Below are positions 8,350 to 64,000 of a stretch of DNA of 64,000 nucleotides, one piece after another (within the stretch, counting starts at the first letter, position 1; every line of letters begins with the position of its first letter). Source of the DNA: an uncultured Planctomycetales bacterium (GTDB lineage Bacteria; Omnitrophota; Gorgyraeia; Zapsychrales; JANLHA01). The stretch is from contig CAYJXI010000003.1 of the NCBI GenBank assembly GCA_964374105.1, forward strand, positions 13,336 to 77,335, read 5' to 3'. A program made the translations under genes and the position numbers. The notes beneath the pieces were generated by a model. It worked only from the letters and a program-made list of their open reading frames with translations, was not told the DNA's origin and ran no database searches.

Positions 8350-9362
8350 ATAACGTGAGTTCGACATAACGGTTAAGCTAAAAGGCCCAAAGAATAAACT
8401 TCCGGATACCTGATGGAAGGTTTCTTGGGAAAAAAAGTATAAGCTACTAAGCCCGAAAACAAATTAACCAGAAAGTTGGCTGGACTGCGATGTCGGGTGT
8501 GTTCAATCTGACACATATTCTTGAGTTCATCGTTAAAGCTTTCGATCAAAGCCCGTTTACGCAACAAGAGTTTATCCATCAACGGCATGAGTTTGTTGGC
8601 CATATTCTTTTTCAGTTTGGTGATTAATTGAATACCTCGTTTGAACAAGAATTGAAACAGTGGATTTGAAAGATAACCTTTATCACCAAATAGTTTACCA
8701 ATAATGTTCTTTGTTAAAGTTTTTATTAAGGACCGATCACGATCATCAACATTGCCTGGGGTTAACATCGTTGAGAGAAGTTCGCCTTTTTCGTTGACGA
8801 TCAAATGCAATTTGAAGCCATAAAACCAACCCATCGATGTCTTACCTCTTTGGGCTATTGGTTTAAACGTTTTATGTTGATGAATCCTGCGGTTGTGGCA
8901 GACCTTAAGGGTTGCGGAATCGAAAAAAGATATTCCAGTGACTTTCCCAAATCGGCAACGTTGCAGATACGTGATCAATGGGACCAGAACTCCTGGCATC
9001 AATTCCACAAACCGATTGTAACTGACTAAGCCAGGAAATTCACGGCGCAGATTTTGGGAAACGTATTTGATGTAATAATTTTTGAAAGTTCGGAATCCCG
9101 ACATATGAAAATTTATCACGATCGTCATAATTTCGCTTAAACACAAACTGCAGGGCTTGATACGTTTGGCCAAACCCTGCTTGAGTAAAAATCTTTGCCA
9201 AAATCGAAGAAATGCTTTACAAAAGTTATCAATCTCATAGAATATGTTCAGTAACATTAGGACCTCCTTGTGTTGGTTGTATTTGCTGTACAACTACTTA
9301 TAACACTAGAGGTCCTTCTTTTTTATCGGAATCTTAATTTTCTTATGTCGAGCTCACGTTAT
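8350..9362 (-). mobile_element. IS982-family insertion sequence, about 1.0 kb.
   Basis: 20-bp terminal inverted repeats ATAACGTGAGTTCGACATAA (8350-8369) and TTATGTCGAGCTCACGTTAT (9343-9362) match at 19 of 20 positions. They bracket a single DDE transposase gene. Confidence 0.75.
8373..9257 (-). CDS. IS982-family DDE transposase.
   Basis: The protein has DSATLKVCHNRRI...GDKGYLS, typical of IS982 transposases. The likely start is the internal ATG (MLLNIFYE), which is preceded by AAGGAGG. The track's longer TTG start at 9293 is rejected. Confidence 0.8.
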   Translation of the reverse strand: MLLNIFYEIDNFCKAFLRFWQRFLLKQGLAKRIKPCSLCLSEIMTIVINFHMSGFRTFKNYYIKYVSQNLRREFPGLVSYNRFVELMPGVLVPLITYLQRCRFGKVTGISFFDSATLKVCHNRRIHQHKTFKPIAQRGKTSMGWFYGFKLHLIVNEKGELLSTMLTPGNVDDRDRSLIKTLTKNIIGKLFGDKGYLSNPLFQFLFKRGIQLITKLKKNMANKLMPLMDKLLLRKRALIESFNDELKNMCQIEHTRHRSPANFLVNLFSGLVAYTFFPKKPSIRYPEVYSLGLLA

Positions 9363-11535: not shown

Positions 11536-12408
11536 TTATAAAGGATTTGAAAGGTAGAGAATCATAATCACAAAGAGGATCCACAATATAATGTTAATCA
11601 ATAACGGTCGATCTGATAACAAGATTTCTCCCGGATCATCTCCAAATTTTTTCACATGAACAAGGTAAAGGTATCTGAAAATCCCGTATATTACAAACCC
11701 TACAGAATAGATCATATAATCTTGGCCAACTCGGATCATAATATCTGCGGACAATGTGTATAATCCATAAAAGACAATACTCAATGTTGAACATATGATG
11801 ATGATTTGATCAAGAAGATAAGTCGTATAATGGGCCAAAACACTTCTGTGCTCAGGGGCTTGATCCTTTAGAGTGGTAATCTCATGGCGTCTTTTTGTAA
11901 ATCCTAAAAATAAAGCTAATAGAAAAACACAGAGTTGAAATCTGGCTGAGGGCAAAACACCACTGGCCAGGGCGCCAGCCCAGATCCTTAACTGAAACCC
12001 AGCAGCAACAAATACGACATCAAGGATCACAATTTTCTTAGTATAAAGATTATAAATGAGGTGCAAAAGGATATATAGAACTCCCATATAAAAGATAAAG
12101 ATATCGACCACAAAACAAATCAAAAGTCCTAAACTCAACAAGCCCACAATAAGTCCAATAATTTGAGAATTCTTAAATTTTCCTTGGGCCAAAGGTCTAG
12201 AGGCTTTTTTGGGATGTAGACGGTCTTTATGACTATCGATATGATCATTAAATATATATGTTCCACTCGCAATTAAACAAAATCCTACAAAAGTTACGAC
12301 ACAATTGAGGAGGCGATTAATGTCAAATAAATTTCCGGAGAAAATAAGTGGGAAAAAGATAAAGGCATTCTTAATCCACTGTTTTATTCTCAATAACTTT
12401 GATAGCAT
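11536..12408 (-). CDS. UbiA-family prenyltransferase, decaprenyl-phosphate 5-phosphoribosyltransferase-like (polyprenyl-P-pentose donor synthesis).
   Basis: A 290-aa protein with 8-9 TM segments. The N-terminus IKQWIKNAFIFFPLIFSG and the Asp-rich NDHIDSHKD motif match the mycobacterial Rv3806c-type UbiA phosphoribosyltransferase pattern (QWVKN...NDxxDxxxD). Confidence 0.55.
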   Translation of the reverse strand: MLSKLLRIKQWIKNAFIFFPLIFSGNLFDINRLLNCVVTFVGFCLIASGTYIFNDHIDSHKDRLHPKKASRPLAQGKFKNSQIIGLIVGLLSLGLLICFVVDIFIFYMGVLYILLHLIYNLYTKKIVILDVVFVAAGFQLRIWAGALASGVLPSARFQLCVFLLALFLGFTKRRHEITTLKDQAPEHRSVLAHYTTYLLDQIIIICSTLSIVFYGLYTLSADIMIRVGQDYMIYSVGFVIYGIFRYLYLVHVKKFGDDPGEILLSDRPLLINIILWILFVIMILYLSNPL

Positions 12409-12431
12409 AAATCACCTGCCCTTGTTGAACC

Positions 12432-14402
12432 TCATTGAATAAGAATTTCGCCCAATTTGAGCACAGTCTTTTGTTCATCAAAGGTTTTTATATAAGGCAA
12501 ATCCTCTTTTGTCTGATTAGCAATTTCGATTGTCGATATTTGGTTTTGATCTGCGTTAAAAAAGAAAATTTCTAGGGAATATTGGCCTGGAGGCAGTGAG
12601 GGTGGCAAAAGGAGCCAATAATTTTCTTTGATAAAATCTCCTTTTTCCCAAGAGACTGTTGGATAAATCGAATAACCGATACGTCTAACGCGAGAATCAA
12701 CCGTTTCATCCCCCTTTTTGATATATAATACCATTTTGTAATTTTCTTTAACATCAACATCAGATTTCCAAAGAAATGTGAGCGGTAAAAGAGATCTGCG
12801 GGAATGTAAAGACGGCCCTATTTTAGAAACTAGAAGTCGGAACCGATGATCAATAAGAACTTGGGGGGATTGGGAAATATCTTCTGGACCATGATCTTTC
12901 ATCACTTCAACAAGTCTGATCCCTTCCTCGTCTTCTCTTTCTAAAAGTACTATGTCTTCAACTGCATCTTTGACCTTCCAGTTCACTTGAGAGAAAAAAG
13001 GATCTTTAAGAAGCACAATGGTGGATGGCTTCCGAATTACATCTTGTAAAACCCATTCATCCTCGAAGTCTATTAGGGCGTATGATATTTCAGGGGGTGG
13101 TCGAAAAGGATACCCTGTCAAACCATTAAATCCTCTTGTTACATTTAAAAATGAATAGAGATGTTTACGTCGGGATAGTTCATTTAAAAAATCAAATGTG
13201 GCGATAATCCCAGACTCGGGAGGAATCTGTTTTATCATTTTCCAGCGAATAGGATCGAGCTTATCAGGAATCATAGAAATACGAGAGGATAACATCGACT
13301 TATAACTTAAGGTGCTAAATAAGCAAACGAAGGCAATAATAATGAATGTTGTACAAAAAAAGCAAGTTCTTGTATTGGCTTGCAAATATTTTAATGATTT
13401 AGCAGCCGCTAAGAAAACAAATGGAACAATAGATGTATTGTAATGAAAGAAAATAGTGTGTTGTGACCATGGATAAGCTAAAATATTCTGTAGAAGAATT
13501 GGGGAAATTATAAAGAGTGTTTGAGGGTTTAATAATGGAATAAATAGAAGTGGACCAAAGAGCTCTCGATAATAATACAGATTGTCTGGATGAACAATAT
13601 GTTGTTTAAAAATTTTTATAGGATGAGATAAAAGGGTCCCAAGGATTTGTAAAGGGGTATTCCCTAAACCTAAAGAAGAATATAAAACAAGGTACTGATG
13701 GGGGCTAGGTAGATCTCTTCTGATAGTGGGTGTGATGATAAACAACACTATATAAAAATAAATGGACCCAAATAAGATCGGAATTAATCCCCATCTTAAC
13801 TTATTTGTCTTTTTAGAAAAAAGAATGTAAATACCAAATGCAAAAATAATTAATGACATGTTTTCTTTAAGGAGGGGAATTAATATCATCACAATAAAAA
13901 ATGCTTTAAATCTTTCTTCTCTATAAAAATAATACAAAAGGAAAAGAAAAATAACGGATAAGCTTTCAAAATCAAATTCGAAAAGAAGAGCAAAGATGTT
14001 GGCTGGGAAAAAGATAAAAAGAATCATCAAAATTAAGGCCATTATGGGATGGAGATCTTTTTTGACAATGGTATAAAGCATAAAGGCACCGGAAAAGAAG
14101 GAAAGAAGTTTTAAATAAATCAGGGTCAAAGAATGAGGAAAGAGGAAGTATATGGGTGTAATCAATAAAGCAATATAATTCGCATGATTGGCAAAAAAAT
14201 TCATACCTATGAGAGAAGAATAAAAAGATCCATGGGTTAGATTCCACATGGCATGGGAATATATCGCCAAATCCCAATCATAATAACCGAAAAAATAATA
14301 TTTATAAGTTAAAAGAATAAACCATGATGTGAAGCCTAACAAGGATATAAACAAAGCCACTAGATCGTAATGTTTATATTTTTTAGTCAAGGAATGTTCC
14401 AA
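12432..14402 (-). CDS. Large polytopic membrane protein, GT-C-fold glycosyltransferase candidate (DUF2079/ArnT/PMT-like), with a C-terminal soluble domain.
   Basis: A 656-aa protein with about 11 N-terminal TM helices. The acidic motif YYDWDL sits in the first extracytoplasmic loop right after TM1, which is where GT-C enzymes carry their catalytic D/E motif. The C-terminal 250 aa are hydrophilic. Start-to-stop spacing suggests an operon with the UbiA-family gene. Confidence 0.45.
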   Translation of the reverse strand: MEHSLTKKYKHYDLVALFISLLGFTSWFILLTYKYYFFGYYDWDLAIYSHAMWNLTHGSFYSSLIGMNFFANHANYIALLITPIYFLFPHSLTLIYLKLLSFFSGAFMLYTIVKKDLHPIMALILMILFIFFPANIFALLFEFDFESLSVIFLFLLYYFYREERFKAFFIVMILIPLLKENMSLIIFAFGIYILFSKKTNKLRWGLIPILFGSIYFYIVLFIITPTIRRDLPSPHQYLVLYSSLGLGNTPLQILGTLLSHPIKIFKQHIVHPDNLYYYRELFGPLLFIPLLNPQTLFIISPILLQNILAYPWSQHTIFFHYNTSIVPFVFLAAAKSLKYLQANTRTCFFCTTFIIIAFVCLFSTLSYKSMLSSRISMIPDKLDPIRWKMIKQIPPESGIIATFDFLNELSRRKHLYSFLNVTRGFNGLTGYPFRPPPEISYALIDFEDEWVLQDVIRKPSTIVLLKDPFFSQVNWKVKDAVEDIVLLEREDEEGIRLVEVMKDHGPEDISQSPQVLIDHRFRLLVSKIGPSLHSRRSLLPLTFLWKSDVDVKENYKMVLYIKKGDETVDSRVRRIGYSIYPTVSWEKGDFIKENYWLLLPPSLPPGQYSLEIFFFNADQNQISTIEIANQTKEDLPYIKTFDEQKTVLKLGEILIQ

Positions 14403-14459
14403 TTTAAAAATTCCCTACTTCGTTCGTCAGGATCACGGGTTGAGAAATATCTCAATCCG

Positions 14460-15467
14460 TCAATTTAATGTCTTATAAACCTTACGCCAATAACGAGACA
14501 AGAATTTCACTTTTCCTTCTAGCCAATGGATATGATTCTTAGCCCAAGCAATTGTCGAAATAAGACCCTGTTCGAACTTGATGTGAGGTTGCCAGCCTAA
14601 TTTTTTTATCTTGTCATAGTTTAAAGAATAGCGAAAGTCATGACCGGGACGATCTCTGACAAATTGAATGAGATCAGAAGATTTTTGTAAATACTGAAGG
14701 GCTAACCGAGCCACATCAATATTTCGCTTTTCAAAGGGGCTGCCTATGTTATAAGTTTCTCCTATTTGTCCTTTTTCTAAAATGAGCAGTATGGCGGCAA
14801 TACAATCACTGACATGCAGCCATTCCCGGATATTCAACCCCCTCCCATAAACCGGGATTTTTTTATTTTTTAAAGCCTTGAGGATAATCACGGGAATAAA
14901 CTTCTCTGGATATTGCCATGGCCCGTAGTTATTGGTGGGCCGTATAAGAATGGCCGGCAATCGGTGGGTTCGGATGGCCGCTTTAATAAGACAGTCGGCG
15001 GAAGCCTTTGTCGCGGAATAAGGATTATTGGGACTTAGAGAAGAGGACTCGTTAAATTCCCCCTTCTTGATTTCTCCGTAAACCTCATCCGTAGAGATGT
15101 GAAGGTATTTGGAAATATGAAATTTTCTGACACCATCAATGAGATTTTGTGTTCCTTTAATATTAGTTTTGATAAAAGGATAGGGGTCAAGGATACTTCG
15201 ATCCACATGGGTCTCAGCCGCAAAATGGATGATGGCCTTAGGTTTTTCCTTTTTTATAATGTCAGCAACTTTTGGAAAATGACAAATATCTTCTCGGTAA
15301 AAAATAATCTGGCCTTTGACAGACTGCAAACGGGTCAAATCCCCTGCATAAGTCAATTTGTCAATAACCACAACTTTGTAACCACGCGCCACCCCCTGCC
15401 TTACAAATTCGCTGCCAATGAATCCTGCCCCTCCGGTCACCAATATCTTGGATGAAAATTTAGTCAT
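14460..15467 (-). CDS. rfbB: dTDP-glucose 4,6-dehydratase.
   Basis: ILVTGGAGFIGSEF Rossmann motif, STDEVYG, the catalytic YSATKASADCL (YxxxK) and PTNNYGPWQYPEKFIP are all RmlB hallmarks. Confidence 0.9.
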   Translation of the reverse strand: MTKFSSKILVTGGAGFIGSEFVRQGVARGYKVVVIDKLTYAGDLTRLQSVKGQIIFYREDICHFPKVADIIKKEKPKAIIHFAAETHVDRSILDPYPFIKTNIKGTQNLIDGVRKFHISKYLHISTDEVYGEIKKGEFNESSSLSPNNPYSATKASADCLIKAAIRTHRLPAILIRPTNNYGPWQYPEKFIPVIILKALKNKKIPVYGRGLNIREWLHVSDCIAAILLILEKGQIGETYNIGSPFEKRNIDVARLALQYLQKSSDLIQFVRDRPGHDFRYSLNYDKIKKLGWQPHIKFEQGLISTIAWAKNHIHWLEGKVKFLSRYWRKVYKTLN

Positions 15468-15520
15468 ATCTTCAAAGGAAACGGGCTTAAAGCAATACTT
15501 GTAAATCTAATTCAGCGGTT

Positions 15521-16342
15521 CTAATTCTTAAGGTAACTTTGCACACATTTTTCCAGGATATCTCTGGTCTTTCTAACCGGGAACCCGATTTTTTCGAGTT
15601 TTTTGCATGTGAGGATGAGGTTAGTCCTTTTTAATTTTAATTTGTCGTATTCAATAAGTTCAAATTGAAAATCCGGGACATGTCTTTGATAGATTTTCAG
15701 AAGGTCCGGATAATAAAGAGCGCCTTTGTTAATCACGTTGAATAGACCCTTAGCATTCTTTTTAAGCAAATATTTCAGTGCCCGAATAAAATCGGGAATG
15801 TAAGTCACTGAGTTGGGAACATCAATGACCTTTTTATATTGAATCAGTTTGGTCAAGAGATTTTTAGGATGAGGCCTGTCATCCAACGGAATGCGGATCC
15901 GGGTGATTAAGATATTAAATTGGCGGGAGAGGATTTCTAAGGGCTTTTCACTGTAGATTTTGGTCCGACTATAATAAAGGTCAAAATAATCCGGAATTTT
16001 TTTTTCATCAATGGGTTTGGATTGAGAATAATCATAATGGTAGATACACCCACTGGAGACATGAACTAATTTGATGTTATTTCGCAAGGCCCCTTCCGCC
16101 AAAAGTAAAGGAACAAAGGTATTGGCCTGAATTGTTTTTTCGGGTTGAAGTTCACAGTCATCGACATTCCTATCCCCCGTATATCCGATGCAATTGATCA
16201 TGATCTTAGGGTTAAATTGATGGATTAAATCCTGCACATCTTTAAGCTGATGAATTTTGGAGTCGTTGATCGTGCCATTCAGCCCTTCCTTGAGCCGTTG
16301 ACCGATATAACCTTTTCCTAAGATCAGGATCTCTTTATTCAC
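15521..16342 (-). CDS. RmlD-family NAD(P)-dependent dTDP-4-keto-6-deoxyhexose reductase.
   Basis: N-terminal ILILGKGYIGQRL Rossmann motif and a YSRTK catalytic YxxxK. The gene overlaps rfbA by 8 nt. No rmlC epimerase is present in the window, so the product may not be L-rhamnose. Confidence 0.55.
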   Translation of the reverse strand: MNKEILILGKGYIGQRLKEGLNGTINDSKIHQLKDVQDLIHQFNPKIMINCIGYTGDRNVDDCELQPEKTIQANTFVPLLLAEGALRNNIKLVHVSSGCIYHYDYSQSKPIDEKKIPDYFDLYYSRTKIYSEKPLEILSRQFNILITRIRIPLDDRPHPKNLLTKLIQYKKVIDVPNSVTYIPDFIRALKYLLKKNAKGLFNVINKGALYYPDLLKIYQRHVPDFQFELIEYDKLKLKRTNLILTCKKLEKIGFPVRKTRDILEKCVQSYLKN

Positions 16343-17201
16343 TTAAAAGAACTCCTTTAAGATATTCGCCATAATTTGTTTTGATGGCGCTGGCCAGTTT
16401 TATAAGCTGTTGGGAAGTAATATACCCCATGCGGTAAGCAATCTCCTCGATGCAACCCACTTTAAGGCCTTGGCGGTCCTCAATGGTTCTGATAAAGGTT
16501 GAGGCTTCAATCAAAGAATCATAGGACCCGGTATCCAACCAGGCATAACCCCGGCCTAGCAATTCGACCTTTAAGGCTCCCTTTTTAAGATAGGCATTGT
16601 TCACATCGGTGATTTCCAGTTCCCCCCTCTGGGAAGGTTTCAAAGATTTGGCGATCTTAATGACTCGATGATCATAGAAATATAACCCGGTGCAGGCCCA
16701 GTTCGATTTTGGTTTTGACGGTTTTTCTTCAATAGAAATGACTTTCTTCTTTTTATTAAAGTGAATCACGCCATAGGCTTGGGGGTTTTTGACATAATAA
16801 CCAAATATCGTGGCTCCTTTCTTTCTTAAACTTGCTCTTTTAAGACATTGGGTGAGATTATGGCCGTAAAAGATATTATCACCCAAAATAAGGGCAACCG
16901 GACTCTTTTTAATAAAATCCTCTCCAATGAGGAAGGCCTCAGCAATCCCGCGAGGTTGTTGTTGGACTTTGTAATGAAAAGTCAATCCCAGATCCTTTCC
17001 CGTTCCAAATAGATTTTCAAACCGAGGGAGGTCTTTAGAGGTGGAAATGATAAGAATCTCTCTGATTCCGCTGAGCATTAATACCGAAAGCGGATAATAG
17101 ATCATGGGTTTATCGTAAATGGGAATGAGTTGTTTGCAAACAGCTCTTGTGATTGGATATAATCTTGAACCTGTCCCTCCAGCCAGGATAATGCCTTTCA
17201 A
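16335..17201 (-). CDS. rfbA: Glucose-1-phosphate thymidylyltransferase.
   Basis: MKGIILAGGTGSRLYPIT followed by QLIPIYDKPMIYYPLS is the RmlA signature. The start is TTG, preceded by AAGGAAAG. Confidence 0.9.
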   Translation of the reverse strand: MKGIILAGGTGSRLYPITRAVCKQLIPIYDKPMIYYPLSVLMLSGIREILIISTSKDLPRFENLFGTGKDLGLTFHYKVQQQPRGIAEAFLIGEDFIKKSPVALILGDNIFYGHNLTQCLKRASLRKKGATIFGYYVKNPQAYGVIHFNKKKKVISIEEKPSKPKSNWACTGLYFYDHRVIKIAKSLKPSQRGELEITDVNNAYLKKGALKVELLGRGYAWLDTGSYDSLIEASTFIRTIEDRQGLKVGCIEEIAYRMGYITSQQLIKLASAIKTNYGEYLKGVLLSE

Positions 17202-17387
17202 ATGAGCTTTCCTTTCATAATATAAAGATTAATATGACTTAATAAACTTTTTTAAGTATATCATTGATGTTATTCTTTGACTAGAAATTCAAAAATTTTT
17301 TTTAACGAATTCTTGTTTGCGATTTTAAAGATGAGATACGGGATGGAAGCGGCAGGATGGGGCCTGAGTTTTTATAATTTGTTGAAT

Positions 17388-18053
17388 TCAAGAGCAGTTG
17401 CCATAGAATTTTTCCCCAATCTCAATTCTCTCTTTACCCTTTTTGATTCGCCAAAGATTGGTATCTCTCAAAGAGTAAACACAACCACAGTATTCTTGCT
17501 GGTAAAATTCTTCTCTTTTGGCAATTTCATACATACGCTGAGAACCCCCGCCTTTTCGCCAATTATAGGTCCAATAAATAAGCTGAGGATAACGAGAAGC
17601 CGCTTTAATTCCGCAGGAATTGATTTGATTCATATCCTTCCAGCGAGAAAGACCAAGACTGCTGGTAAAAACTTTAAAGTTATGTTCATGAGAATAAAGG
17701 GCAGTTCGTTCAAAACGCATATCAAAACAGACACTGCAGCGTTTTCCCCTTTCGGGTTCCCATTCTAAACCTCGAACCCGTTCAAACCAGTTATCCCGGT
17801 CATAATCGGCATCAACAAAAGGGATTTTCATTTTCTCGGCAAAACGGATATTTTCATTTTTGCGGATTTCGTATTCCCTCTTAGGATGGATATTAGGATT
17901 GTAGAAAAAGATCGTAAATTCTATCCCAGAGGCAACCAGGGCCTCCATGATTTCTCCTGAACAAGGGGCACAACAGGAGTGCAACAGGATCTTTTTTTCA
18001 TTATGAGGAGGAATGAGCTTAATTCTTTCTACTGGCTTTTCCATAGATTCCAT
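17388..18053 (-). CDS. queH: Epoxyqueuosine reductase QueH (DUF208).
   Basis: The [10 protein letters not shown] motif and conserved cysteines/CGC near the C-terminus match the QueH family. Confidence 0.85.
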
Positions 18054-18103
18054 ATTGCCTTAAGATCTAGCTTTTGTCAAGACGGGTATTGTGATATTTT
18101 GAC

Positions 18104-19045
18104 CTATTTCACCATTGCTTTAAAGGCCAAGGGAAGGGAATCGATCATATCGCTTGCGATCATGGCGATTTTTGTTTTCTTTTTGGCAGTGAGATCCCCT
18201 GCTTTTCCATGGAAATAAGTTGCCCATTTCGCAGCTTCAAATCCAGAGAGTCCCTGTCCTAAAAAGGCGATGATGATTCCGGTTAAGACATCCCCGCTAC
18301 CCGCAGTCGCCATGCCGGGATTCCCAGTTTTGTTGATATATATTTTCCCTTGAGGAGAGGCGACAACCGTTCGATATCCTTTGAGCACTAAGACACATTT
18401 GTATTTCATGGCAAAATCTTTGGCGACCTGAATGCGGTTTTTTTCTATGAACTCCTTTTTTAAAGCAACTAATCGGCTCATTTCTCCTGGGTGGGGTGTT
18501 AAGATTTTGATACTGGATGTCTTTCTTAAACATTTAAGATTTTGAGAAATAGCGTTGAGGGCGTCCGCATCAATGACCAGACTTTGAGAAGCAGTCTCGA
18601 TGACCTTAATTATAAAACGTTGGGTACTTAAGTGTTGGGAGAGCCCCGGGCCAAGCGCAATCGCTTGAAAGTTCTTCAACTCTTTCTTTAAAGAAGAATA
18701 AGCGGACAAAGAGATTGTTTGTAGGAGCGTCTCTTTTAAGGATAAAGTCATAATCACCGCAGAAATCTTTTTTTGTAAAACAGAATTGAGACTCTTGGGG
18801 ACACCGATCGTTACCAACCCCGCCCCGGAACGCATGGCGGCAAGTCCACATAAAGCGGCTGCTCCTAGCATATGGGGGGAACCGGCTAGGATAAGAACAT
18901 GCCCAAATTGATTTTTATAAACGTTAGGAATCTGACGTAATAATGGCGCTGGCAATGGCATAATTTTGGGTATGGGAAATCGAAATGAAGATTTTGTTTT
19001 TAAATTTTTTGTTACGGTAAATACAGATGGGTTTGCCGAATTCAT
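18104..19045 (-). CDS. nnrD: ADP-dependent NAD(P)H-hydrate dehydratase (YjeF C-terminal-domain family).
   Basis: GHVLILAGSPHMLGAAALCGLAAMRSGAG and GSGDVLTGIIIAFL match the carbohydrate-kinase-like Nnr dehydratase. The true start is probably the internal ATG at about 18961, since the long form overlaps acpS. Confidence 0.75.
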   Translation of the reverse strand: MNSANPSVFTVTKNLKTKSSFRFPIPKIMPLPAPLLRQIPNVYKNQFGHVLILAGSPHMLGAAALCGLAAMRSGAGLVTIGVPKSLNSVLQKKISAVIMTLSLKETLLQTISLSAYSSLKKELKNFQAIALGPGLSQHLSTQRFIIKVIETASQSLVIDADALNAISQNLKCLRKTSSIKILTPHPGEMSRLVALKKEFIEKNRIQVAKDFAMKYKCVLVLKGYRTVVASPQGKIYINKTGNPGMATAGSGDVLTGIIIAFLGQGLSGFEAAKWATYFHGKAGDLTAKKKTKIAMIASDMIDSLPLAFKAMVK

Positions 19046-19280
19046 CGTTTAAGATTTTCATGTCCTTCCAGCTGACATGGGCATTATCTCCCAGGGCCTT
19101 TAAGACAGCCTCTTTGGCGGCAAAGCGCGCCGCAAAGTGTTGACTGGGGAATTTATGTTTTTGGGCATAATCAATCTCTTCTTCACAAAAAACATGTTTA
19201 AGGAAATGATCTCCCCAACGATTAATGGCTTTTTCGATCCTTTGAACTTCAATAATGTCAATACCAGTTCCTAAGATCAT
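18924..19280 (-). CDS. acpS: Holo-[acyl-carrier-protein] synthase.
   Basis: ILGTGIDIIEV...FAAKEAVLKALG is the AcpS signature. Confidence 0.85.
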   Translation of the reverse strand: MILGTGIDIIEVQRIEKAINRWGDHFLKHVFCEEEIDYAQKHKFPSQHFAARFAAKEAVLKALGDNAHVSWKDMKILNDEFGKPICIYRNKKFKNKIFISISHTQNYAIASAIITSDS

Positions 19281-20008
19281 GAATGGGTATGCACAATTTT
19301 AAGCATTTCCTTAACCGCGTTGGATAGGCCAACCAAGAGTGCTCTCGATATCACCGAATGGCCAATATTGAGTTCTTCTATCCCACGAATATGGGCGATG
19401 ACCGAAGTATTTTGATAATTGAGGCCATGTCCCGCATTGACGATGAGTCCGAGTTGGTTGGCATATTCAGTCATGTGTTTTAACACCCGAAGTTCCTTTA
19501 ATTGCGAGTGTTTATTCAAAGCGAGGGCAAAACGCCCGGTGTGCAATTCGATCATCTTCACTTTAAGTTCTCGGGACATATCGATTTGCCTTTTGTTGGG
19601 ATCGATGAAAAGACTCACAACAATCCCTTTGTCATGAAGCAGGTCAATGGCGTATTGGATTCGCCGGTAATGTTTGCGGACATCCAAGCCTCCCTCGGTT
19701 GTGATTTCTTGCCTGCGTTCCGGAACAATTGTGGCTTGGTCAGGCTTGAGCAAATAGGCCCAATGAAGGATTTCTCTATTTAGAGAAAGTTCCAAATTCA
19801 ATCTGGTTTTCACGACTTTACGAAGTGTCTTTACATCATTTTCATTGATATGACGACGATCTTCACGGAGATGACAGACAATACTCTGTGCTCCAGCTTG
19901 CTCACAAATTTTTGCAGCTTCAATGGGGTCAGGTTCCCATCCGCGCCTGGCTTGTCTTAAAGTCGCCACGTGATCTATATTGATACCGAGTTTCGGCATA
20001 AACCGCAA
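19277..20008 (-). CDS. pdxJ: Pyridoxine 5'-phosphate synthase.
   Basis: LGINIDHVATLRQARR, HLREDRRHI and ELHTG are conserved PdxJ blocks. The likely start is the ATG at 19999. Confidence 0.9.
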   Translation of the reverse strand: MRFMPKLGINIDHVATLRQARRGWEPDPIEAAKICEQAGAQSIVCHLREDRRHINENDVKTLRKVVKTRLNLELSLNREILHWAYLLKPDQATIVPERRQEITTEGGLDVRKHYRRIQYAIDLLHDKGIVVSLFIDPNKRQIDMSRELKVKMIELHTGRFALALNKHSQLKELRVLKHMTEYANQLGLIVNAGHGLNYQNTSVIAHIRGIEELNIGHSVISRALLVGLSNAVKEMLKIVHTHS

Positions 20009-20112
20009 AATTCTTAAATTGGTAGAAAAGCCAATTGATTGAGCCCTCGGGCAATTTCTTCCGAATATCCCGAAGGGTCATGAAGGGTTGAAAAGACACC
20101 CTGACCCGTCAA

Positions 20113-20235
20113 TTAAAGGGAGACTCGATTTTTAATTTCTTTTATTAATTCTCGGTTGACATAAATCCAAGTAATAATGGCCAATCCTAAGGCAATCAAT
20201 TTAAGTAAAACATTTTGCGTCAACAATTTTTTCAT
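20113..20235 (-). CDS. 40-aa single-TM micro-ORF downstream of cdaA (possible CdaR remnant).
   Basis: The ORF encodes MKKLLTQNVLLKLIALGLAIITWIYVNRELIKEIKNRVSL. It is not in the ORF track because it is under 60 aa. Its position matches the cdaA-cdaR arrangement seen in other bacteria. Confidence 0.2.
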   Translation of the reverse strand: MKKLLTQNVLLKLIALGLAIITWIYVNRELIKEIKNRVSL

Positions 20236-20295
20236 TTTAAAGAATGAATAATAATTTTCACTTGGAAACAACGATCATTTATTTCCAGTTAGCTT

Positions 20296-21069
20296 TCAAC
20301 GTTTCTTTTTATTTTGGGCCATAAAGAGGTTTTTTAGTGTATGGATTAAGTTGTCCTGATCTTTAACTTGAATGAACCGCCCATCGACCGCTACCGATAC
20401 CTCTGCGGTTTCCTCAGAAACCATGATGACGGCAGCATCGGTCTGCTCACTTAAGCCTAAGGCCGCCCGGTGACGCGTGCCAATGGTTTTATTAAATTTG
20501 GGATTCTCCGTTAATGGAAATAGGCAAGCAGCCGCTACAATTCGATCACCGCGAGTGATGAGTCCCCCATCGTGAATCGGAGACTGAGGCATAAAGATGC
20601 TGACAATCAAATCGGCCGAAATTTTACTATCCAGAAGAATCCCGCTTTCAATATACGTATTGAGTTTGGATTCTCTCTCAATGGCTATAAGACAACCGAT
20701 CTTATCTCTGGCCAGCTTAAATATGGCGGAGGTCATTTCATCCAAAATGGCCAGGATTTCCGATTCGGCCAGGGCAATATTAAATAAGTGCTGTTGTCCC
20801 AATCGGGCTAAACCAATCCTCAATTCCTGTTGAAAAATGATTAAGATGGCAATGATCGATATCCCGAAAAATTTGGTCAGTAGCCAGTTCAATGTGTCAA
20901 ATCCCAGAAATTGCGATGAGATGAAGGCAATCAGAAGATAGATAATTCCTTTAAGGACTTGAAAGGACCGGGTTCCTTCGATAAAAACCAAGATTCGATA
21001 AAAAACTATCCAAAGGATAATAATTTCGAAGGCTGGTTTTACGATCTTCCAGATAACAAAAAATTCCAT
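20296..21069 (-). CDS. cdaA: Diadenylate cyclase CdaA (c-di-AMP synthase).
   Basis: Three N-terminal TM segments followed by a DAC domain with the DGA (HDGGLITRGDRIVAAACLFP) and RHRAA motifs. Confidence 0.85.
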   Translation of the reverse strand: MEFFVIWKIVKPAFEIIILWIVFYRILVFIEGTRSFQVLKGIIYLLIAFISSQFLGFDTLNWLLTKFFGISIIAILIIFQQELRIGLARLGQQHLFNIALAESEILAILDEMTSAIFKLARDKIGCLIAIERESKLNTYIESGILLDSKISADLIVSIFMPQSPIHDGGLITRGDRIVAAACLFPLTENPKFNKTIGTRHRAALGLSEQTDAAVIMVSEETAEVSVAVDGRFIQVKDQDNLIHTLKNLFMAQNKKKR

Positions 21070-21149
21070 GAGAATACGCTTATGATTTTATCAGGGATCC
21101 GTTAAGTAGCTTAAAGTCCTTCGACAGCTAATTTAAGGGTGAGGACTTC

Positions 21150-22094
21150 TTAAACAAAAGCCATCGATTCCTTCTTCAAATGATTTTGTAAAGGATGAAA
21201 AACAGTTTGATTCATCAACGCATCCGTCATTTTGACAACATCAAAGATTTCTTTGACATCATGGGCGCGAACAATATGCGCCCCTTTATAAATTCCAAAA
21301 CAGATACTGGCTGCTGTTCCTAACAGACGATGTTTCACATCCTTGTTTAAAACATGACCAATAAAGGATTTCCGCGAAGGTCCAATGAGAATAGGCTGAT
21401 TTAAGATTTTCAATCTATCCAAATGATTTAAAATTTCAAGATTGTGCTGGTAATTTTTCCCGAATCCTATTCCTGGATCAATGATAATTTTATCCGATTT
21501 GATCCCAATTTCCAAGCAAATTTCTATAGAATGTCTCAATTCGCTAATGATCTCACCCATTAAATCTTTATAAAAAATATTTCTTTGCATGGTCTGAGGG
21601 GTTCCTCTCATATGCATTAAAACAATGGCGGCATCATAGCGTTTGACCATTTTAAGAAGAGGTTTTTGTAATTGTATACCCTTGATATTATTGATGAGGC
21701 TTGCCCCTGCATCCAGGGCATGCTGGGCAACGGCTGGTTTGTAGGTATCAACCGAAATAGGAACACGGATCCTGGGGACGAGGATTTTGATGACAGGTAA
21801 TATACGTTTTAATTCTTCTTCAATGGAGATTCGTTTTGATCCTGGATGGGAAGATTCTCCCCCGATATCAATCAGGTCCGCTCCCTGCCGGATGAACTTC
21901 TGGGCTAAGGTCACGGCTCGGGTAGTGAAATCGTTGGGGTTTCCTAAAAGGCATCCATCTTCACTGAAGGAATCAGGGGTGATATTGATAATCCCCATGA
22001 TTTTGGTCTGCTCATCTAATTCTAATCGAAAATTTCGGAGATATAAGGTGAACTTATCGCGAATAGAATGATTATTTGAATTAAATTTCCGCAC
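21150..22094 (-). CDS. folP: Dihydropteroate synthase.
   Basis: GIINITPDSFSDGG, DIGGESSRPG and VSVDTYKPAVA blocks. An alternative start is the internal ATG at 21998. Confidence 0.85.
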   Translation of the reverse strand: MRKFNSNNHSIRDKFTLYLRNFRLELDEQTKIMGIINITPDSFSEDGCLLGNPNDFTTRAVTLAQKFIRQGADLIDIGGESSHPGSKRISIEEELKRILPVIKILVPRIRVPISVDTYKPAVAQHALDAGASLINNIKGIQLQKPLLKMVKRYDAAIVLMHMRGTPQTMQRNIFYKDLMGEIISELRHSIEICLEIGIKSDKIIIDPGIGFGKNYQHNLEILNHLDRLKILNQPILIGPSRKSFIGHVLNKDVKHRLLGTAASICFGIYKGAHIVRAHDVKEIFDVVKMTDALMNQTVFHPLQNHLKKESMAFV

Positions 22095-59196: not shown

Positions 59197-59307
59197 ATGG
59201 GAAAAGGAGAATTAAAAAGACGATGAAAATTCCAGTACAATTTTTAAAAACCATTTTTTTCTTTTGGTTATTCTCCCTTGGCTTGTGTCCTGTGACTTTA
59301 TTTTAAG

Positions 59308-59380
59308 TGGACCGAGGGGGAGTCGAACCCCCGACCTCCTGATTGCGAACCAGGCATTCTCCCAACTGAACTATCGGCCC
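59308..59380 (-). tRNA. tRNA-Ala (anticodon CGC).
   Basis: Hand-folded cloverleaf: GGGCCGA acceptor stem with the G3:U70 alanine identity pair, anticodon loop UUCGCAA, T-arm GGGGGUUCGACUCCCCC. CCA is not encoded. Confidence 0.8.
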
Positions 59381-59403: not shown

Positions 59404-59643
59404 TTAAAATTTCAGTTTAGCTTTACAATTTAAATAACTCTTAATAAGAAATTCTAAAACTTCCGGCTGATTTAGCAAAAACCAGATTGGAAACACAATG
59501 GCAGCAACTTTGAAAGCAGTTCTAAAATTAGGTTCAGTTGTTTTGGGTAAGAACTTTTCAAGATTTTTTGGGAAGAAGGCCAAGAAAATCAGAGATAATT
59601 CCGCAATAATTGCCAGCACAATTTTTGAAGGTTTCATCAACAA
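59404..59643 (-). CDS. Small two-TM membrane protein (79 aa), hypothetical.
   Basis: ORF with two hydrophobic helices. No motif recognized. Confidence 0.35.
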   Translation of the reverse strand: MLMKPSKIVLAIIAELSLIFLAFFPKNLEKFLPKTTEPNFRTAFKVAAIVFPIWFLLNQPEVLEFLIKSYLNCKAKLKF

Positions 59644-59741
59644 ATCTTTTTGACTCGAGTTTTTCAGTTTTTTAAAAACAACCTCATCTTAGCAAATAGA
59701 CCCCCATCTTACAAGCTCTGTTAAATCAATTTTCTTTTGTC

Positions 59742-59834
59742 ATTCCTGCTTTAAGCCCGCCTGCCGGACGGGCAGGAATCCATGAGCTTTGGGATCCCGC
59801 ATCGAGCGCGGGATGACGTGAAGCAGGACTTTTT
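59742..59834. other. GC-rich structured element with alternative pairings: a CCTGC/GCAGG triple plus the ATCCCGC-N7-GCGGGAT hairpin.
   Basis: Two CCTGC copies (59745-59749, 59760-59764) can each pair with GCAGG copies (59772-59776, 59823-59827). A 7-bp hairpin is at 59794-59814 and a T5 run at 59830-59834. It lies immediately 3' of the HTTM gene stop. Confidence 0.35.
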
Positions 59835-61200
59835 ATTCTCTCAAGGGAACAATCCAATGGGCATGCGAAAATAAGGGATATTGGACCTTCGTAAGATCAA
59901 CGGTACTGTCAATAAAGGGTTGGTAGGCTCGTCCGTTAAGGGAGGCCTGAGCTTCTACTTTGATGATAGGATCAGGAATACCAATTTTAACTAAATCTTT
60001 TTTTAAATAATGGACGTATTGTAACAGCATATCCGGCATATTATCTAACCATTGTTGTTGGTTGGTCACATGGTTTTGGAAAGGAACATAAAAGGATTTA
60101 CCGGTTTTCGGATCCGTCGCAATGATTCTCATTTTAACCAATTTGGTATTGAGTTTAAGCCGCCAGGAAAACCGGCATCCTTCAAAATCCCAGGCGGGAT
60201 GGCCCGGATATAACCATCGGCGTAAAGGGATGAAAAGCTGTAAAGTTATATAAATCGCAATAAAACATAGAACAAGCTTAGAGTAAGGTGCAGAGCAATG
60301 CAGTGGTTTCTGTGTTGACCCCGGACTGGGATCTAAAGGAAGATGAAAAAAAATTTGGATTCTATTAACAAATTTTCGTGGGGCATCAGGATTAAGAAAT
60401 AAGACAAAACCAGCAATCATGAGAAAGGGGAAAATCCCAATATCATCAAATATCCAGTGGTTAGTTAAATTGAAAACTAAGGTGCAAAAAAAGGTAAAGA
60501 TTCGATAACGATTCAAGAGCAGCAATACTAAGAGTAAAAACACCAAGATCAAGCCACCGTAGCTAAAGAGGTAGGCCACCCAAGCGTCCTCCCCCGTTTT
60601 CCCAAAGAAAGTTTTTTCCGAAAGAATTCTGTGAAGCGGTTGGGCACGCCACAACCAATCCCCATTGAGTTTAGAAACAGCACTAAAGAAATACACAATG
60701 ACAAATTGCATCCTTAAGATGAAGATTTGCCAAAAGGGAATCAGTTGATGATGAACCTTTTTCAATCTTAAAATATTCAGTGGGGGCCATTGCTGAGCTT
60801 GCGTTATCATGAAAAGAAAAATGATAAGAAGGATGAGATAGTAATGATCATTATACAGGGCTTTGTCAAATAAAAAAAAGTAGCTAAAAGTCAGTAAGTA
60901 TACAAGACTCGAGATCTTAAATAAGAGTCCGGTGGCTATACCTAAGGTCGTAATTCCCATAATAAGAAAAAGAAGCTGCATCCCTTGCGGGGATAAACGT
61001 TCAAGATGCAAGAATTCGAAAAGACTAAAGGGGAAATGATATTGAGGTAAGATGAAATTTTCCTTAATAAACTCAGGAGTAAAAATAAAAAAGGATTGCC
61101 CTAATAGGAGAAGACCAAATAACAATCGGAATAAACCTAAAGAAGAACAATCAACCGATTTAAAAAGGTCTTGTTGCCAAGATTTGAATCGAAGGTTCAC
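59833..61200 (-). CDS. HTTM-domain membrane protein (vitamin K-dependent gamma-carboxylase-like).
   Basis: A 455-aa protein. N-terminal DLFKSVDCSSLGLFRLLFGLLLL matches the start of the HTTM domain. It has multiple TM helices, and the C-terminal region with WDFEGCRFSWRLKL resembles the luminal part of VKGC-like proteins. Confidence 0.55.
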   Translation of the reverse strand: MNLRFKSWQQDLFKSVDCSSLGLFRLLFGLLLLGQSFFIFTPEFIKENFILPQYHFPFSLFEFLHLERLSPQGMQLLFLIMGITTLGIATGLLFKISSLVYLLTFSYFFLFDKALYNDHYYLILLIIFLFMITQAQQWPPLNILRLKKVHHQLIPFWQIFILRMQFVIVYFFSAVSKLNGDWLWRAQPLHRILSEKTFFGKTGEDAWVAYLFSYGGLILVFLLLVLLLLNRYRIFTFFCTLVFNLTNHWIFDDIGIFPFLMIAGFVLFLNPDAPRKFVNRIQIFFHLPLDPSPGSTQKPLHCSAPYSKLVLCFIAIYITLQLFIPLRRWLYPGHPAWDFEGCRFSWRLKLNTKLVKMRIIATDPKTGKSFYVPFQNHVTNQQQWLDNMPDMLLQYVHYLKKDLVKIGIPDPIIKVEAQASLNGRAYQPFIDSTVDLTKVQYPLFSHAHWIVPLRE

Positions 61201-61253: not shown

Positions 61254-61838
61254 CTAAAAGCTATGTCCTATTGGAGTAATTCGAGTTTCTAAGACAAATT
61301 CAGGGTTAGTCACCGGATGTTGGGCATAACCAGGATTACTTCGGTTTGTGAGTTTGACATCCAAATACATATCCCGGGTAACACTATCCAAAACAAAAGT
61401 GTACGTAAAATTTGCGGCCCCAGTGGCCGCAGTTCCTAGGACTGGATCGGTAGTGACACAGTTCCCTGGGCCAACGGCAGCGGTCCGGTTACACTTATGA
61501 ATATTATTCACGTTTCGCCAGTAACAGATCCACATGTCATCGTTGTAGGAATTGGGAGTGTGAGGATTATTGAGATCTTGGCGAACACACAAGTAGGTGG
61601 TGCTGGTCCGGACACCTCGATTATTGTTGTCTCCTAAAGCCAGTTCGGCGTTGCGGGCGATATCGGTCATCGTGGTTTGTGTTTCGATGGAAAGACGAAT
61701 ATCCTGAGCGGCCATCCTACGGGAACTGTTAATGGCATAGTCGACCGAAACCGCTCCCAACATGACAATACCTATGAGGGCAGTAGAGACAAGGAGCTCT
61801 AATAAGGTTAATCCATTTTTTTTGTTCATTTTCAGCAT
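61254..61838 (-). CDS. Prepilin-type minor pilin / pseudopilin (194 aa).
   Basis: The N-terminus NKKNGLTLLELLVSTALIGIVMLGAV is a class III signal peptide with G-1 and E+5. Confidence 0.7.
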   Translation of the reverse strand: MLKMNKKNGLTLLELLVSTALIGIVMLGAVSVDYAINSSRRMAAQDIRLSIETQTTMTDIARNAELALGDNNNRGVRTSTTYLCVRQDLNNPHTPNSYNDDMWICYWRNVNNIHKCNRTAAVGPGNCVTTDPVLGTAATGAANFTYTFVLDSVTRDMYLDVKLTNRSNPGYAQHPVTNPEFVLETRITPIGHSF

Positions 61839-61846
61839 TCTAACCC

Positions 61847-62227
61847 CTACCAGGTAATATTCAAGACTACCTTTCTTGCCGAAGTCCCTTTAGAATCAGC
61901 ACTGACGACGTAACTGGGAGCATAAGAAATACCATTAACGATAACTGGCGTTGTAGGTCCTGTAAGGGGTGGATGGGTTCCTATCGCCAGTTCCCCTGTA
62001 TTCCAGTTGTTAGCGTCAACCTGGGTTCTTAAATCTTCTAAGATCCTTTTGCCAATAAAAGCTGCGGTGACCTCTTTGCTGGAAACGTTAGTTGGCTGTT
62101 TTAACATAGAAACGGTGGCAAAGACCCCGGCGGCCGCAATGGCAAAAATGAGACTCGATACAATGATCTCAACTAAGGTAAATCCGGTATTCTTGTTTCT
62201 TCTTCGAATTTCTCCAATGCTTTTCAT
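61847..62227 (-). CDS. Prepilin-type minor pilin / pseudopilin (126 aa).
   Basis: NTGFTLVEIIVSSLIFAIAAAGVFA prepilin motif with G-1, F+1 and E+5. Confidence 0.7.
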   Translation of the reverse strand: MKSIGEIRRRNKNTGFTLVEIIVSSLIFAIAAAGVFATVSMLKQPTNVSSKEVTAAFIGKRILEDLRTQVDANNWNTGELAIGTHPPLTGPTTPVIVNGISYAPSYVVSADSKGTSARKVVLNITW

Positions 62228-62245: not shown

Positions 62246-62710
62246 TTAAGGACAAGTTCCTGCAGAACATCGAGGGTTATTAGTACTCGCAGGGGATGGA
62301 TTGCTCAAGTCAAAAGGATCAGTATCAATATCAGTTTGAGTAATGAGAATCGTAAAAGGCGCTGCGGGCGCAATTCTAGCAGCGGTACAATCGTAAGTTG
62401 TCCCGGTTGCAGTCCCTCGACATGTATAAGTCATCCCACTAGCAATGATATTTAATCCTAAATTTGTATTGATCAGGGCTAGATTGTAAGTGTTAGTATC
62501 AGGCGGCCAAAAACGGCCATTCCTGGCTCGATAAATGCGATTGGCGGAGTTAATGGCAATCAACTGATTGGTCGCATCATCCCGATGGGTTCTTTCAATG
62601 GTTCTAGTAAAATTGGGAATAGCGAAAGACGCCATCACCGATAAAATGATCACCACCACCATCACCTCCATCATAGTAAAGGCCTTTTTTAATAGAGAGC
62701 CCATAGCCAT
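62246..62710 (-). CDS. Prepilin-type minor pilin / pseudopilin (154 aa).
   Basis: KKAFTMMEVMVVVIILSVMASFAIP prepilin motif with A-1, F+1 and E+5. The C-terminus has 4 Cys. Confidence 0.7.
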   Translation of the reverse strand: MAMGSLLKKAFTMMEVMVVVIILSVMASFAIPNFTRTIERTHRDDATNQLIAINSANRIYRARNGRFWPPDTNTYNLALINTNLGLNIIASGMTYTCRGTATGTTYDCTAARIAPAAPFTILITQTDIDTDPFDLSNPSPASTNNPRCSAGTCP

Positions 62711-62798: not shown

Positions 62799-63221
62799 TT
62801 AAAATCCCAATTTAGAACATAATCCTGCCGGGCCTCCAGCACACTCTATATTCCCATCGACATCAATCGATAACGTATAGGAACCGTTTCTTGTGATTTG
62901 TGCTACATAAAAATCGGGGCCTGGGAGGCCATTTAAGGCAACCGGTGTATTAAATAAGCTCGAGGGCCGTACTTCCAAATCAAGATCAGTGATATCGATA
63001 GTAAAAGCCCCCGCATTATCCAAGGAATACCGCTTTTGCGCTCCAAACAGCGCAATGAGAATTTGTTTACCTTCTTCAGAACGAAATTTTTCTAACGTGG
63101 TCACAAAGCTCGGGATGGCAAGACCGACAATCACAGTTAAGATAATCATGGTAATGATCATCTCCATTAAGGTAAATCCCAAAGGTAGTAAAGTTAATTT
63201 TTTTTCAATTAATCGAGTCAT
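62799..63221 (-). CDS. Prepilin-type minor pilin / pseudopilin (140 aa).
   Basis: LPLGFTLMEMIITMIILTVIVGLAIP prepilin motif. The CAGGPAGLC C-terminus suggests a disulfide loop. Confidence 0.7.
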   Translation of the reverse strand: MTRLIEKKLTLLPLGFTLMEMIITMIILTVIVGLAIPSFVTTLEKFRSEEGKQILIALFGAQKRYSLDNAGAFTIDITDLDLEVRPSSLFNTPVALNGLPGPDFYVAQITRNGSYTLSIDVDGNIECAGGPAGLCSKLGF

Positions 63222-63470: not shown

Positions 63471-63890
63471 TTATTTGATTCCTGTAAAAGCTGTTGCACC
63501 TGAGCGAGTAACCGTCGCAGTTCCTATAATCAAATCAATCGTGCTTGCTGAATTTCCTCCATCCGTAGTATTTCTTGTCGCCCTTAAGGTATAAGCATTA
63601 GTCGCAACGTTAACCCAAGAATAAGTAAAATGAGCTCCTGGGGAATCCTTGGGATCGGAAAGGTCGATGTTGCCAAACGTATTGCAATTTGTATAAACTC
63701 CTTGCAGTAAGTAACAACGTTCTACCGAAGAACGCAAGGCAGTCATAGCCGAGAGACCTTCCGAGCTTCGTGAGAACTCCACGGTACTCACTAGGCGGGG
63801 TAAAGCCAAACTGGCTAGAACCCCAATAATGATCACCACAATTATAATTTCAAGCAGGGTAAAACCGCTTTTTTTCATTGTTAAATTCAT
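63471..63890 (-). CDS. Type IV major pilin-like protein (paralog B).
   Basis: MNLTMKKSGFTLLEIIIVVIIIGVLASLALPRLVSTVEFSRSSEGLSAMTALRSSVERCYL is nearly identical to paralog A over the first 55 residues and diverges toward the C-terminus. Its G-1 is canonical. RBS AGGAG. Confidence 0.8.
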   Translation of the reverse strand: MNLTMKKSGFTLLEIIIVVIIIGVLASLALPRLVSTVEFSRSSEGLSAMTALRSSVERCYLLQGVYTNCNTFGNIDLSDPKDSPGAHFTYSWVNVATNAYTLRATRNTTDGGNSASTIDLIIGTATVTRSGATAFTGIK

Positions 63891-64000
63891 CTTAACTCTC
63901 CTTTTTTATACTATATATTAACTCTATATATGATTGAGTTTATTTTCTAAACTAAACCTTTGCTTGCAACTTACTAATGCTTAAATTTGTTCTTTTTATC

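Follow-up and report, generated by a model that had tools for sequence, protein, structure and literature searches.

In a 64,000-nucleotide stretch of an Omnitrophota genome (assembly GCA_964374105.1, contig CAYJXI010000003.1, positions 13,336–77,335; hereafter the window), the gene at 59833..61200 on the minus strand encodes a complete, compact relative of the vitamin K-dependent carboxylase (VKGC), which is more than a mere HTTM-domain protein, and is the last gene of an operon containing five type IV prepilin genes. The same order, five prepilins followed by VKGC, recurs in divergent relatives, and, of the readings considered, a functional link with type IV pilins is best supported by this repeated close placement behind the fifth prepilin. 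Gene order indicates that, in one clade of Candidatus Omnitrophota, VKGC is transcribed together with the five prepilin genes and closes their module. We propose that the protein is a menaquinol- and O2-dependent, periplasm-facing carboxylase that acts on a membrane-anchored pilin, a reading to which we assign a probability of about 45%. Among the numerous bacterial homologues of the blood-clotting carboxylase, a substrate is known only for the MloH pathway, and an operon with the enzyme directly after five pilin genes provides a short list of candidate protein substrates.

Fold and active site of the window protein

The VKGC gene is an intact open reading frame (ORF) with a GTG start codon and encodes 455 amino acids; the identical protein is called in two independent public assemblies. 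A first-pass annotation had predicted an HTTM/VKGC-like membrane protein here. Its position for the ORF is exact, and its identification is borne out by Pfam, phmmer and Foldseek, which all agree. Only two Pfam domains are detected, and no NCBIfam model matches the protein. The transmembrane HTTM domain (PF05090; residues 13–272, 60385..61164 on the minus strand) covers profile positions 1–258 of 259 with E = 2.4e-54 and 185 bits against a cut-off of 27.7; from residue mapping and conservation, it holds the quinol site. The second domain (VKGC_lumenal_dom, PF22777; residues 307–454, 59839..60282 on the minus strand) scores 136 bits against a cut-off of 27.7 (E = 1.4e-39) and is predicted to face the periplasm. 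According to the GGCX alignment and the published domain description (PMC12647623), it is equivalent to human TM9, loop LL9 and clamp A.

Residues 13–453 align with residues 56–505 of human GGCX at ~27% identity (E ~ 3e-38, phmmer against PDB sequences). The AlphaFold2 model, computed from 25 homologues, has a pLDDT of 89 and a pTM of 0.89. Its Foldseek matches are sixteen human GGCX PDB entries only (E from 1e-13 to 1e-21, query-normalised TM 0.84–0.85 at best), and the best match other than GGCX has E > 1. Membership of the VKGC family and the fold are secure: the gene encodes a genuine but minimal bacterial member, in which a nine-helix HTTM domain is joined to clamp A, the first of the lumenal lobes.

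An HMMER alignment of 25 homologues was used to transfer to the window protein the residues that the human structures of 2025 single out (PMC12589487, PMC12647623). The human catalytic base, K218, corresponds to K177 (codon 60670..60672, minus strand), which is invariant in all 25. Equally invariant are the equivalents of N290 (N247), F286 (F243), F299 (F257), W399 (W346) and Y162 (Y121), while those of W223 (W182) and F294 (F251) are kept in 24 of the 25. In the human enzyme, F299 stacks on CO2 and W223 on K218 (PMC12589487, PMC12647623). The structural contacts K154, D442, Q446, R476 and W501 (human numbering) are retained, N158 is kept, and the N159 position is Asp or Asn in the homologues (D118 in the window protein). 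The K217 position is Ser. The catalytic Lys and His equivalents that the first-pass annotation proposed to look for are both present in the window protein, K218 as K177 and H160 as H119.

The window protein stops at human position ~507, two residues past the end of the alignment. Clamp A is present; the clamp B jelly-roll, with its R513 bridge helix, and the C-terminal domain (603–758) have no counterpart. The C99–C450 disulfide is also absent, the two positions being F61 and Y398, and the clade has no conserved Cys column. HTTM-DCC fusions have been reported that suggest a thiol-disulfide role (bioRxiv 10.64898/2026.08.19.745780); we rejected such a role here on account of the missing Cys column. 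The equivalent of human 374–418 is present (window residues 321–364), and no other block is as strongly conserved across the bacterial family. It contains the LL9 motif, W-[TS]-x-E-G-x-R-F-[SA]-W-R-[LM]-K, at residues 337–349, which is more basic than the human version. In the human enzyme, the LL9 loop forms the Glu/CO2 site. The extra basic residues, R343, R347 and K349, would suit an anionic substrate.

Recurrence of the prepilin–VKGC module

In the window, the five prepilin genes lie upstream of VKGC on the same, minus strand. Prepilin 1 (139 amino acids; 63471..63890) matches N_methyl and ComP_DUS and carries the motif KKSGFTLLE. Prepilins 2 (140 amino acids; 62799..63221), 3 (154 amino acids; 62246..62710; Ala at −1), 4 (126 amino acids; 61847..62227; weakly PilV/GspI-like) and 5 (194 amino acids; 61254..61838) were identified by profile matches together with the prepilin motif. 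All five possess the class III signal motif, namely a short basic leader, Gly or Ala at −1 and a hydrophobic N-terminal helix with Glu5. Four of them pass the PF07963 gathering score; prepilin 2 falls below it in Pfam but passes TIGR02532. Prepilin 1 is probably the major pilin, because it is the best conserved of the five and has a 77%-identical paralogue in the window, and the other four are probably minor pilins. The earlier description of four minor pilin genes upstream was thus right in placing pilin genes directly before VKGC, but the prepilins number five and the first looks like a major pilin.

The closest VKGC relatives (45–54% identity) come from metagenome-assembled genomes (MAGs) of Candidatus Omnitrophota or "uncultured Planctomycetales"; a genome scan for close relatives used a 12-sequence close-clade alignment as the query. 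Five prepilins followed by VKGC are found in at least six of the ten Omnitrophota lineages examined: the window and loci L003 (protein P0008, on a 515-kb contig), L006 (P0010), L007 (P0005), L055 (P0004) and L056 (P0009). The module is probably also present in the contig of P0006, for which no DNA is available. The condition under which the first-pass reading would have failed, HTTM homologues in related genomes never neighboring pilin genes, does not hold: six verified lineages and one probable one keep VKGC directly after the same five prepilins.

Prepilin 5 directly precedes VKGC in every module locus, with gaps of 53 (window), −4, 47, 3, 19 and 70 bp. The module VKGCs are mutually 41–54% identical, with one pair at 65%, and the pilins are 23–53% identical between loci (23–44% for prepilin 5 orthologues); the loci represent deep lineages. 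Upstream of the pilins, L003, L006 and L007 have genes for PilM, PilO, a small protein, a secretin, an MshE-type (T2SSE-type) ATPase and PilC, which assigns the module in these loci to a type IV pilus system. In the window, prepilin 1 lies 110 bp from the end of the stretch, and the PilM-to-PilC region would fall beyond base 64000.

Both outer flanks of the module vary. The upstream flank is PilC in L003, L006 and L007 and an MFS/spermine-synthase gene in L055. Downstream, rsmE and recA follow in the window, L006, L007 and L056, where the wider synteny reaches recX-alaS-his if contigs extend that far; the P0006 contig has a TPR gene, and L003 has three tRNA genes followed by menaquinone genes. 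It is because the close spacing after prepilin 5 survives changes on both flanks, across deep divergence, that a functional tie to pilins is the best-supported reading.

Shared ancestry could nevertheless account for the arrangement if VKGC landed at the end of a pilin operon in the ancestor of the clade and stayed there in most descendants without functional consequence. All module loci lie within one clade, and the wider rsmE-recA synteny in four of them demonstrates a general stability of gene order. Of the ten close relatives whose context is known, three have no pilin directly upstream: VKGC follows uvrA in L009 and L059, and a small TPR gene (227 amino acids) precedes it in the P0007 contig. 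Adjacency has thus been lost in these relatives, and distant homologues have no pilin linkage apart from one Bdellovibrionales locus. Against this explanation, the junction is intact in L003, L055 and the P0006 contig, which differ in both outer flanks, and holds at 41–54% VKGC identity and only 23–44% identity of the adjacent pilin. Overlapping or near-abutting genes (−4 and 3 bp) suggest translational coupling, and the relocated copy in L009 still lies within 5 kb of type IV pilus machinery, with PilM, PilO, secretin and ATPase genes downstream. We consider inherited order without function distinctly improbable as the whole explanation, while the relatedness of the lineages means that part of the recurrence is inheritance.

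The C-terminus of prepilin 5 (window 61254–61275) and of its orthologues has a recurrent feature: a His 3–4 residues from the end, usually followed by Ser, Thr or Ala and an aromatic residue (GHSF, GHAFK, QHTY and AHTW, for example), while identity elsewhere in the protein is just 23–44%. A word-based search with the prepilin 5 family matched just two near-identical fragments.

The association does not extend to the VKGC family at large. An exhaustive search gave 3,616 clusters of homologues (at 50% identity) at E ≤ 1e-3 and 1,151 at E ≤ 1e-30, of which the close clade accounts for ~4. Relatives at 27–33% identity occur in Bacteroidota, Myxococcota, Bdellovibrionota and other Omnitrophota. A prepilin-motif scan, which recovered all six window pilins, found pilin genes near VKGC in only one (L029) of 39 distant-homologue loci. 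A metagenome scan yielded 12 loci; all lay outside the close clade and lacked pilins. The module is confined to an Omnitrophota clade of at least 45% identity and is missing from the relatives at 27–33%. The linkage of HTTM proteins to pilins holds in this clade but is not general for bacterial HTTM proteins, since the neighbours of distant homologues differ.

In Myxococcota/Bradymonadia, a DUF4856-imelysin-VKGC cluster is present in L017 (7158–13904), L019, L024 and L035, with the imelysin gene stopping 15–38 bp before VKGC, and a TonB-dependent receptor gene lies near VKGC in L017, L019, L024 and L040; the context is iron-uptake-like. In Saprospiraceae, the neighbours are FG-GAP/ASPIC and giant repeat proteins. 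Elsewhere in the family, the neighbours of all homologues (imelysin, DUF4856, TonB-dependent receptor, FG-GAP/ASPIC) are exported or envelope proteins, which fits an outward-facing active site.

Some individual loci deserve description. In L029 (7489–11239; a Bdellovibrionales MAG), the sole case of pilin proximity found outside the Omnitrophota clade, two PilA-like genes are on the opposite strand, divergent from a two-gene unit that encodes a 338-amino-acid protein and a 423-amino-acid VKGC homologue with a 4-bp overlap. In L058 (330–4852; a 42%-identity relative), VKGC is duplicated in tandem and no pilins were found. The pair is divergently flanked by genes for three paralogous ~150-amino-acid proteins with an N-terminal membrane anchor, conserved Cys and neither a Pfam match nor a prepilin motif, which are possible alternative substrates. 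Genes for TPR proteins occur near close-clade VKGCs: downstream in L009 (1991–6611; 826 amino acids, followed by ExbB/ExbD) and in the P0006 contig (680 amino acids), and upstream in that of P0007. In the window, a GT-C gene with TPR repeats lies two genes from VKGC. This recurrence may reflect the mere abundance of TPR genes in these genomes.

Downstream of the VKGC stop codon in the window, the order is a hairpin cluster, a 79-amino-acid ORF, tRNA-Ala, rsmE, a PMT_2/GT-C+TPR gene, a pilin paralogue, recA, an HtrA-type protease gene, recX and alaS. The G+C-rich stem-loop cluster (59740..59830, minus strand) lies directly 3' of the stop codon and is a possible operon end, although the evidence for it is weak (z = −2.2). 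The ORF (59404–59643), with two hydrophobic helices, is called as a 77-amino-acid gene in two independent assemblies. The tRNA-Ala(CGC) gene (59307..59380, minus strand) stands between the pilin–VKGC operon and rsmE, which scores above the NCBIfam cut-off. Because the hairpin cluster and the tRNA gene intervene, VKGC ends the pilin operon, and the rsmE-GT-C-pilin segment is a separate unit. The first-pass annotation had placed VKGC between the pilins and that segment; the segment is no part of the conserved unit, as the GT-C/TPR gene is also without a counterpart in the other module loci. The 79-amino-acid ORF and the GT-C/TPR gene were considered as conserved partners and rejected, neither having a tblastn match in seven related loci.

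The GT-C/TPR gene (56585–58390) and the major-pilin paralogue (55937–56344), the sixth pilin gene, are on the minus strand outside the conserved module and form, by comparison with L006, L007 and L056, a window-specific insertion between rsmE and recA (55937..58390). The paralogue has a perfect TTGACA-17-TATAAT promoter match at 56469–56441. At 11536–14402, a decaprenyl-phosphate phosphoribosyltransferase gene (257 bits against a cut-off of 234) adjoins a gene for a DUF2079 membrane protein. In P. aeruginosa, the GT-C enzyme TfpW arabinosylates pilins from a decaprenyl-phosphate-linked donor. By analogy, the GT-C/TPR-pilin paralogue pair and the phosphoribosyltransferase/DUF2079 pair could constitute a separate pilin glycosylation system. 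A polysaccharide/methyltransferase cluster at the left end of the window harbours two insertion-sequence genes (2230–3015 and 8373–9293), one for an rve integrase with HTH_21 and one for a DDE_Tnp_1_3 transposase.

Proposed cofactor, substrate and mechanism

Evidence on the cofactor comes from L003, where the module is followed by tRNA-Thr, tRNA-Tyr and tRNA-Gly (11543–12186) and, immediately beyond, by menaquinone genes (12486–21362). MenG/UbiE, isochorismate synthase, MenD and MenB score above curated cut-offs and are accompanied by a UbiA-family gene, so the classical menaquinone pathway exists in the clade. The men genes are interrupted by a PIF1-type helicase gene and an NTP_transf_2/HEPN pair. 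A vitamin K-type enzyme beside vitamin K2 synthesis is suggestive, in this one genome only. The window has no men genes: the L003 men proteins match only a TrpE paralogue there, and the UbiA-family gene of the window, considered as a menaquinone gene, is instead the decaprenyl-phosphate phosphoribosyltransferase.

By homology to GGCX, the active site would open to the periplasm, on the outer side of the inner membrane. In the mechanism that we propose, the enzyme would bind menaquinol; the invariant K177 would deprotonate it, and O2 would convert the quinol to a strong base. A membrane-anchored pilin, not yet assembled into the pilus, would present an acidic side chain at the periplasmic face; the base would deprotonate this side chain, and CO2 would trap the resulting carbanion. 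The product would be a Ca2+-binding residue resembling gamma-carboxyglutamate (Gla) on the pilus subunit. We infer every step past the conserved quinol site.

The pilins offer few candidate residues. The conserved Glu positions are E5 and one or two in the exposed helix alpha-1 of pilins 1 and 2. Pilin Glu5 lies near the cytoplasmic face, where PilD acts, while the GGCX active site faces the lumen or periplasm. On topology, Glu5 is an unlikely target.

Several observations weigh against pilin carboxylation, in addition to the three relatives lacking an upstream pilin and the common descent of the lineages. Alignments of the five orthologue sets of operon pilins contain no Gla-domain-like Glu cluster and no obvious propeptide-type recognition element. 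The H160 position is His in six, Tyr in five and Cys in one of the close-clade sequences, and the positions of Y395 and R436, occupied by C342 and Q383 in the window protein, also vary. From the sequence, the human mode of substrate capture cannot apply, as clamp B, the C-terminal domain and the C99–C450 disulfide are all missing. The LL9 motif is common to pilin-linked and non-pilin-linked homologues; therefore, its chemistry is not pilin-specific. The proposed reaction needs O2. Finally, Val replaces the essential D263 in the window protein. The pilin Glu modification that the first-pass annotation had offered as an example is no more than a candidate, in view of the absent Glu cluster and clamp B, the variable Glu pocket and His, and the Val at D263.

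The last of these points concerns V220 (codon GTG, 60541..60543, minus strand), where 24 of the 25 homologues have Asp and the window copy is the exception. Human D263 hydrogen-bonds vitamin K and pairs with K218 (bioRxiv 10.64898/2026.03.26.714578; PMC12647623), and its variants are inactive bar D263E, which retains 25% activity (bioRxiv 10.64898/2026.03.26.714578). Its role differs between structural studies, one of which argues that it is not the ultimate proton acceptor (PMC12647623). Since two nucleotide changes are needed to turn an Asp codon into GTG and the identical protein is found in independent assemblies, V220 is not a sequencing error. General decay of the gene was rejected, because the protein deviates at only two of the columns conserved in at least 90% of sequences, V220 and the conservative R95K.

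The window copy may therefore be weakly active or inactive, or Val may be tolerated in it; Asp is the rule in the clade. A dead or crippled pseudoenzyme, kept for a non-catalytic role such as that of a membrane scaffold or minor-pilin chaperone, would account for the loss of a residue whose human variants are mostly inactive in a protein that is otherwise well maintained, and hence still under selection. However, every other active-site residue, including K177, is intact, the role of D263 is disputed, a bacterial enzyme may tolerate Val, and a substitution in a single lineage says nothing on the clade. We regard a pseudoenzyme as distinctly unlikely.

A third explanation is that the enzyme is a quinol oxygenase/epoxidase, or a carboxylase of a non-pilin substrate (an envelope protein, a lipid or a small molecule), and shares merely a transcript or regulation with the pilins. 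The Glu pocket varies beside an invariant quinol half-site, and the LL9 motif is found equally in homologues beside imelysin/TonB-receptor or FG-GAP genes; MloH and the giant-virus VKED, moreover, act on non-protein substrates or are proposed epoxidases (PMC12647623, PMC12186529, bioRxiv 10.64898/2026.03.26.714578). However, VKGC repeatedly stands −4 to 70 bp after prepilin 5 even where the flanks are rearranged, which is difficult to account for if it has no tie to the pilins. The carboxylation-associated region (human 374–418) is retained and highly conserved, unlike in the viral epoxidase-only forms, and no biosynthetic genes (nonribosomal peptide synthetase (NRPS)/polyketide synthase (PKS) or desaturase) lie nearby. 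A non-pilin substrate is a doubtful alternative, and carboxylation of a pilin remains the reading that we favour.

In its most specific form, the hypothesis is that a bacterial vitamin K-dependent carboxylase without clamp B acts on the type IV pilus subunits of this clade, which would be the first natural protein substrates of such an enzyme, with Gla or a related carboxylated residue installed through menaquinol and O2. So stated, it is unlikely. If true, the pilus would gain Ca2+-dependent binding that could serve in attachment to host cells or minerals, for instance; pilin modifications would have a new class, and protein Gla chemistry would exist outside animals. Pilin carboxylation would bring new chemistry to pilus biology and, in a 455-amino-acid protein, a compact system for studying how vitamin K-dependent carboxylation works and how it evolved. 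If it is false, the locus still defines an accessory membrane protein associated with type IV pili, in a phylum that is little understood and mostly uncultured.

Comparison with known carboxylases and pilin modifiers

Human GGCX and the window protein share the HTTM domain, the clamp A part of the lumenal domain, the catalytic K218, the quinol pocket and W399. The human protein is longer (758 versus 455 amino acids) and has a bipartite propeptide clamp, a C-terminal domain and a disulfide. The window protein differs further in having Ser for K217, Val for D263, its own LL9 motif EGxRF[SA]WR[LM]K and a type IV pilin module as its genomic partner.

The first-pass statement that no function has been established for bacterial HTTM proteins is out of date. 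In malonomycin biosynthesis, the Streptomyces VKDC orthologue MloH carries out the alpha-carboxylation of an aspartyl residue (Law et al. 2018, cited in PMC12647623 and PMC12186529). As a bacterial GGCX homologue, it shows that the family is catalytically active in bacteria. It acts, however, on a PKS-NRPS intermediate inside a biosynthetic cluster; the neighbours of the window gene are prepilins, tRNA, rsmE and recA, with no NRPS/PKS or other biosynthetic cluster nearby. A Leptospira orthologue studied by Rishavy et al. in 2005 reportedly has epoxidase but no detectable carboxylase activity.

The giant-virus VKED, a gamma-carboxylase-like epoxidase(-desaturase), retains K218 but lacks human ~374–418, and vitamin K epoxidation for a non-Gla purpose has been proposed for it; its genes are fused or adjacent to desaturase and VKOR genes (bioRxiv 10.64898/2026.03.26.714578). 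The window protein, in contrast, retains the 374–418 region and has no desaturase or VKOR neighbour. Other bacterial two-domain VKGCs, from Bacteroidota, Myxococcota and Bdellovibrionota, have the same ~450-amino-acid architecture and the same active-site and LL9 motifs, but their neighbours are not prepilins.

Known pilin modifiers (the N-methylase/peptidase PilD, the O-oligosaccharyltransferases PilO/TfpO/PglL, the GT-C arabinosyltransferase TfpW, and PptA) are polytopic inner-membrane enzymes, often encoded beside their pilin, that act on membrane-anchored pilins before assembly. The window VKGC has no sequence relationship to them, the HTTM and VKGC domains being all that is detected. To our knowledge, quinol/O2-driven carboxylation is not known for pilins, and we know of no bacterial protein that carries Gla. 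A literature search found no paper linking HTTM/VKGC proteins to pilins. Within a known family, then, what is new is the conserved association of VKGC with a pilin module, together with a minimal architecture in which clamp A is the only lumenal lobe.

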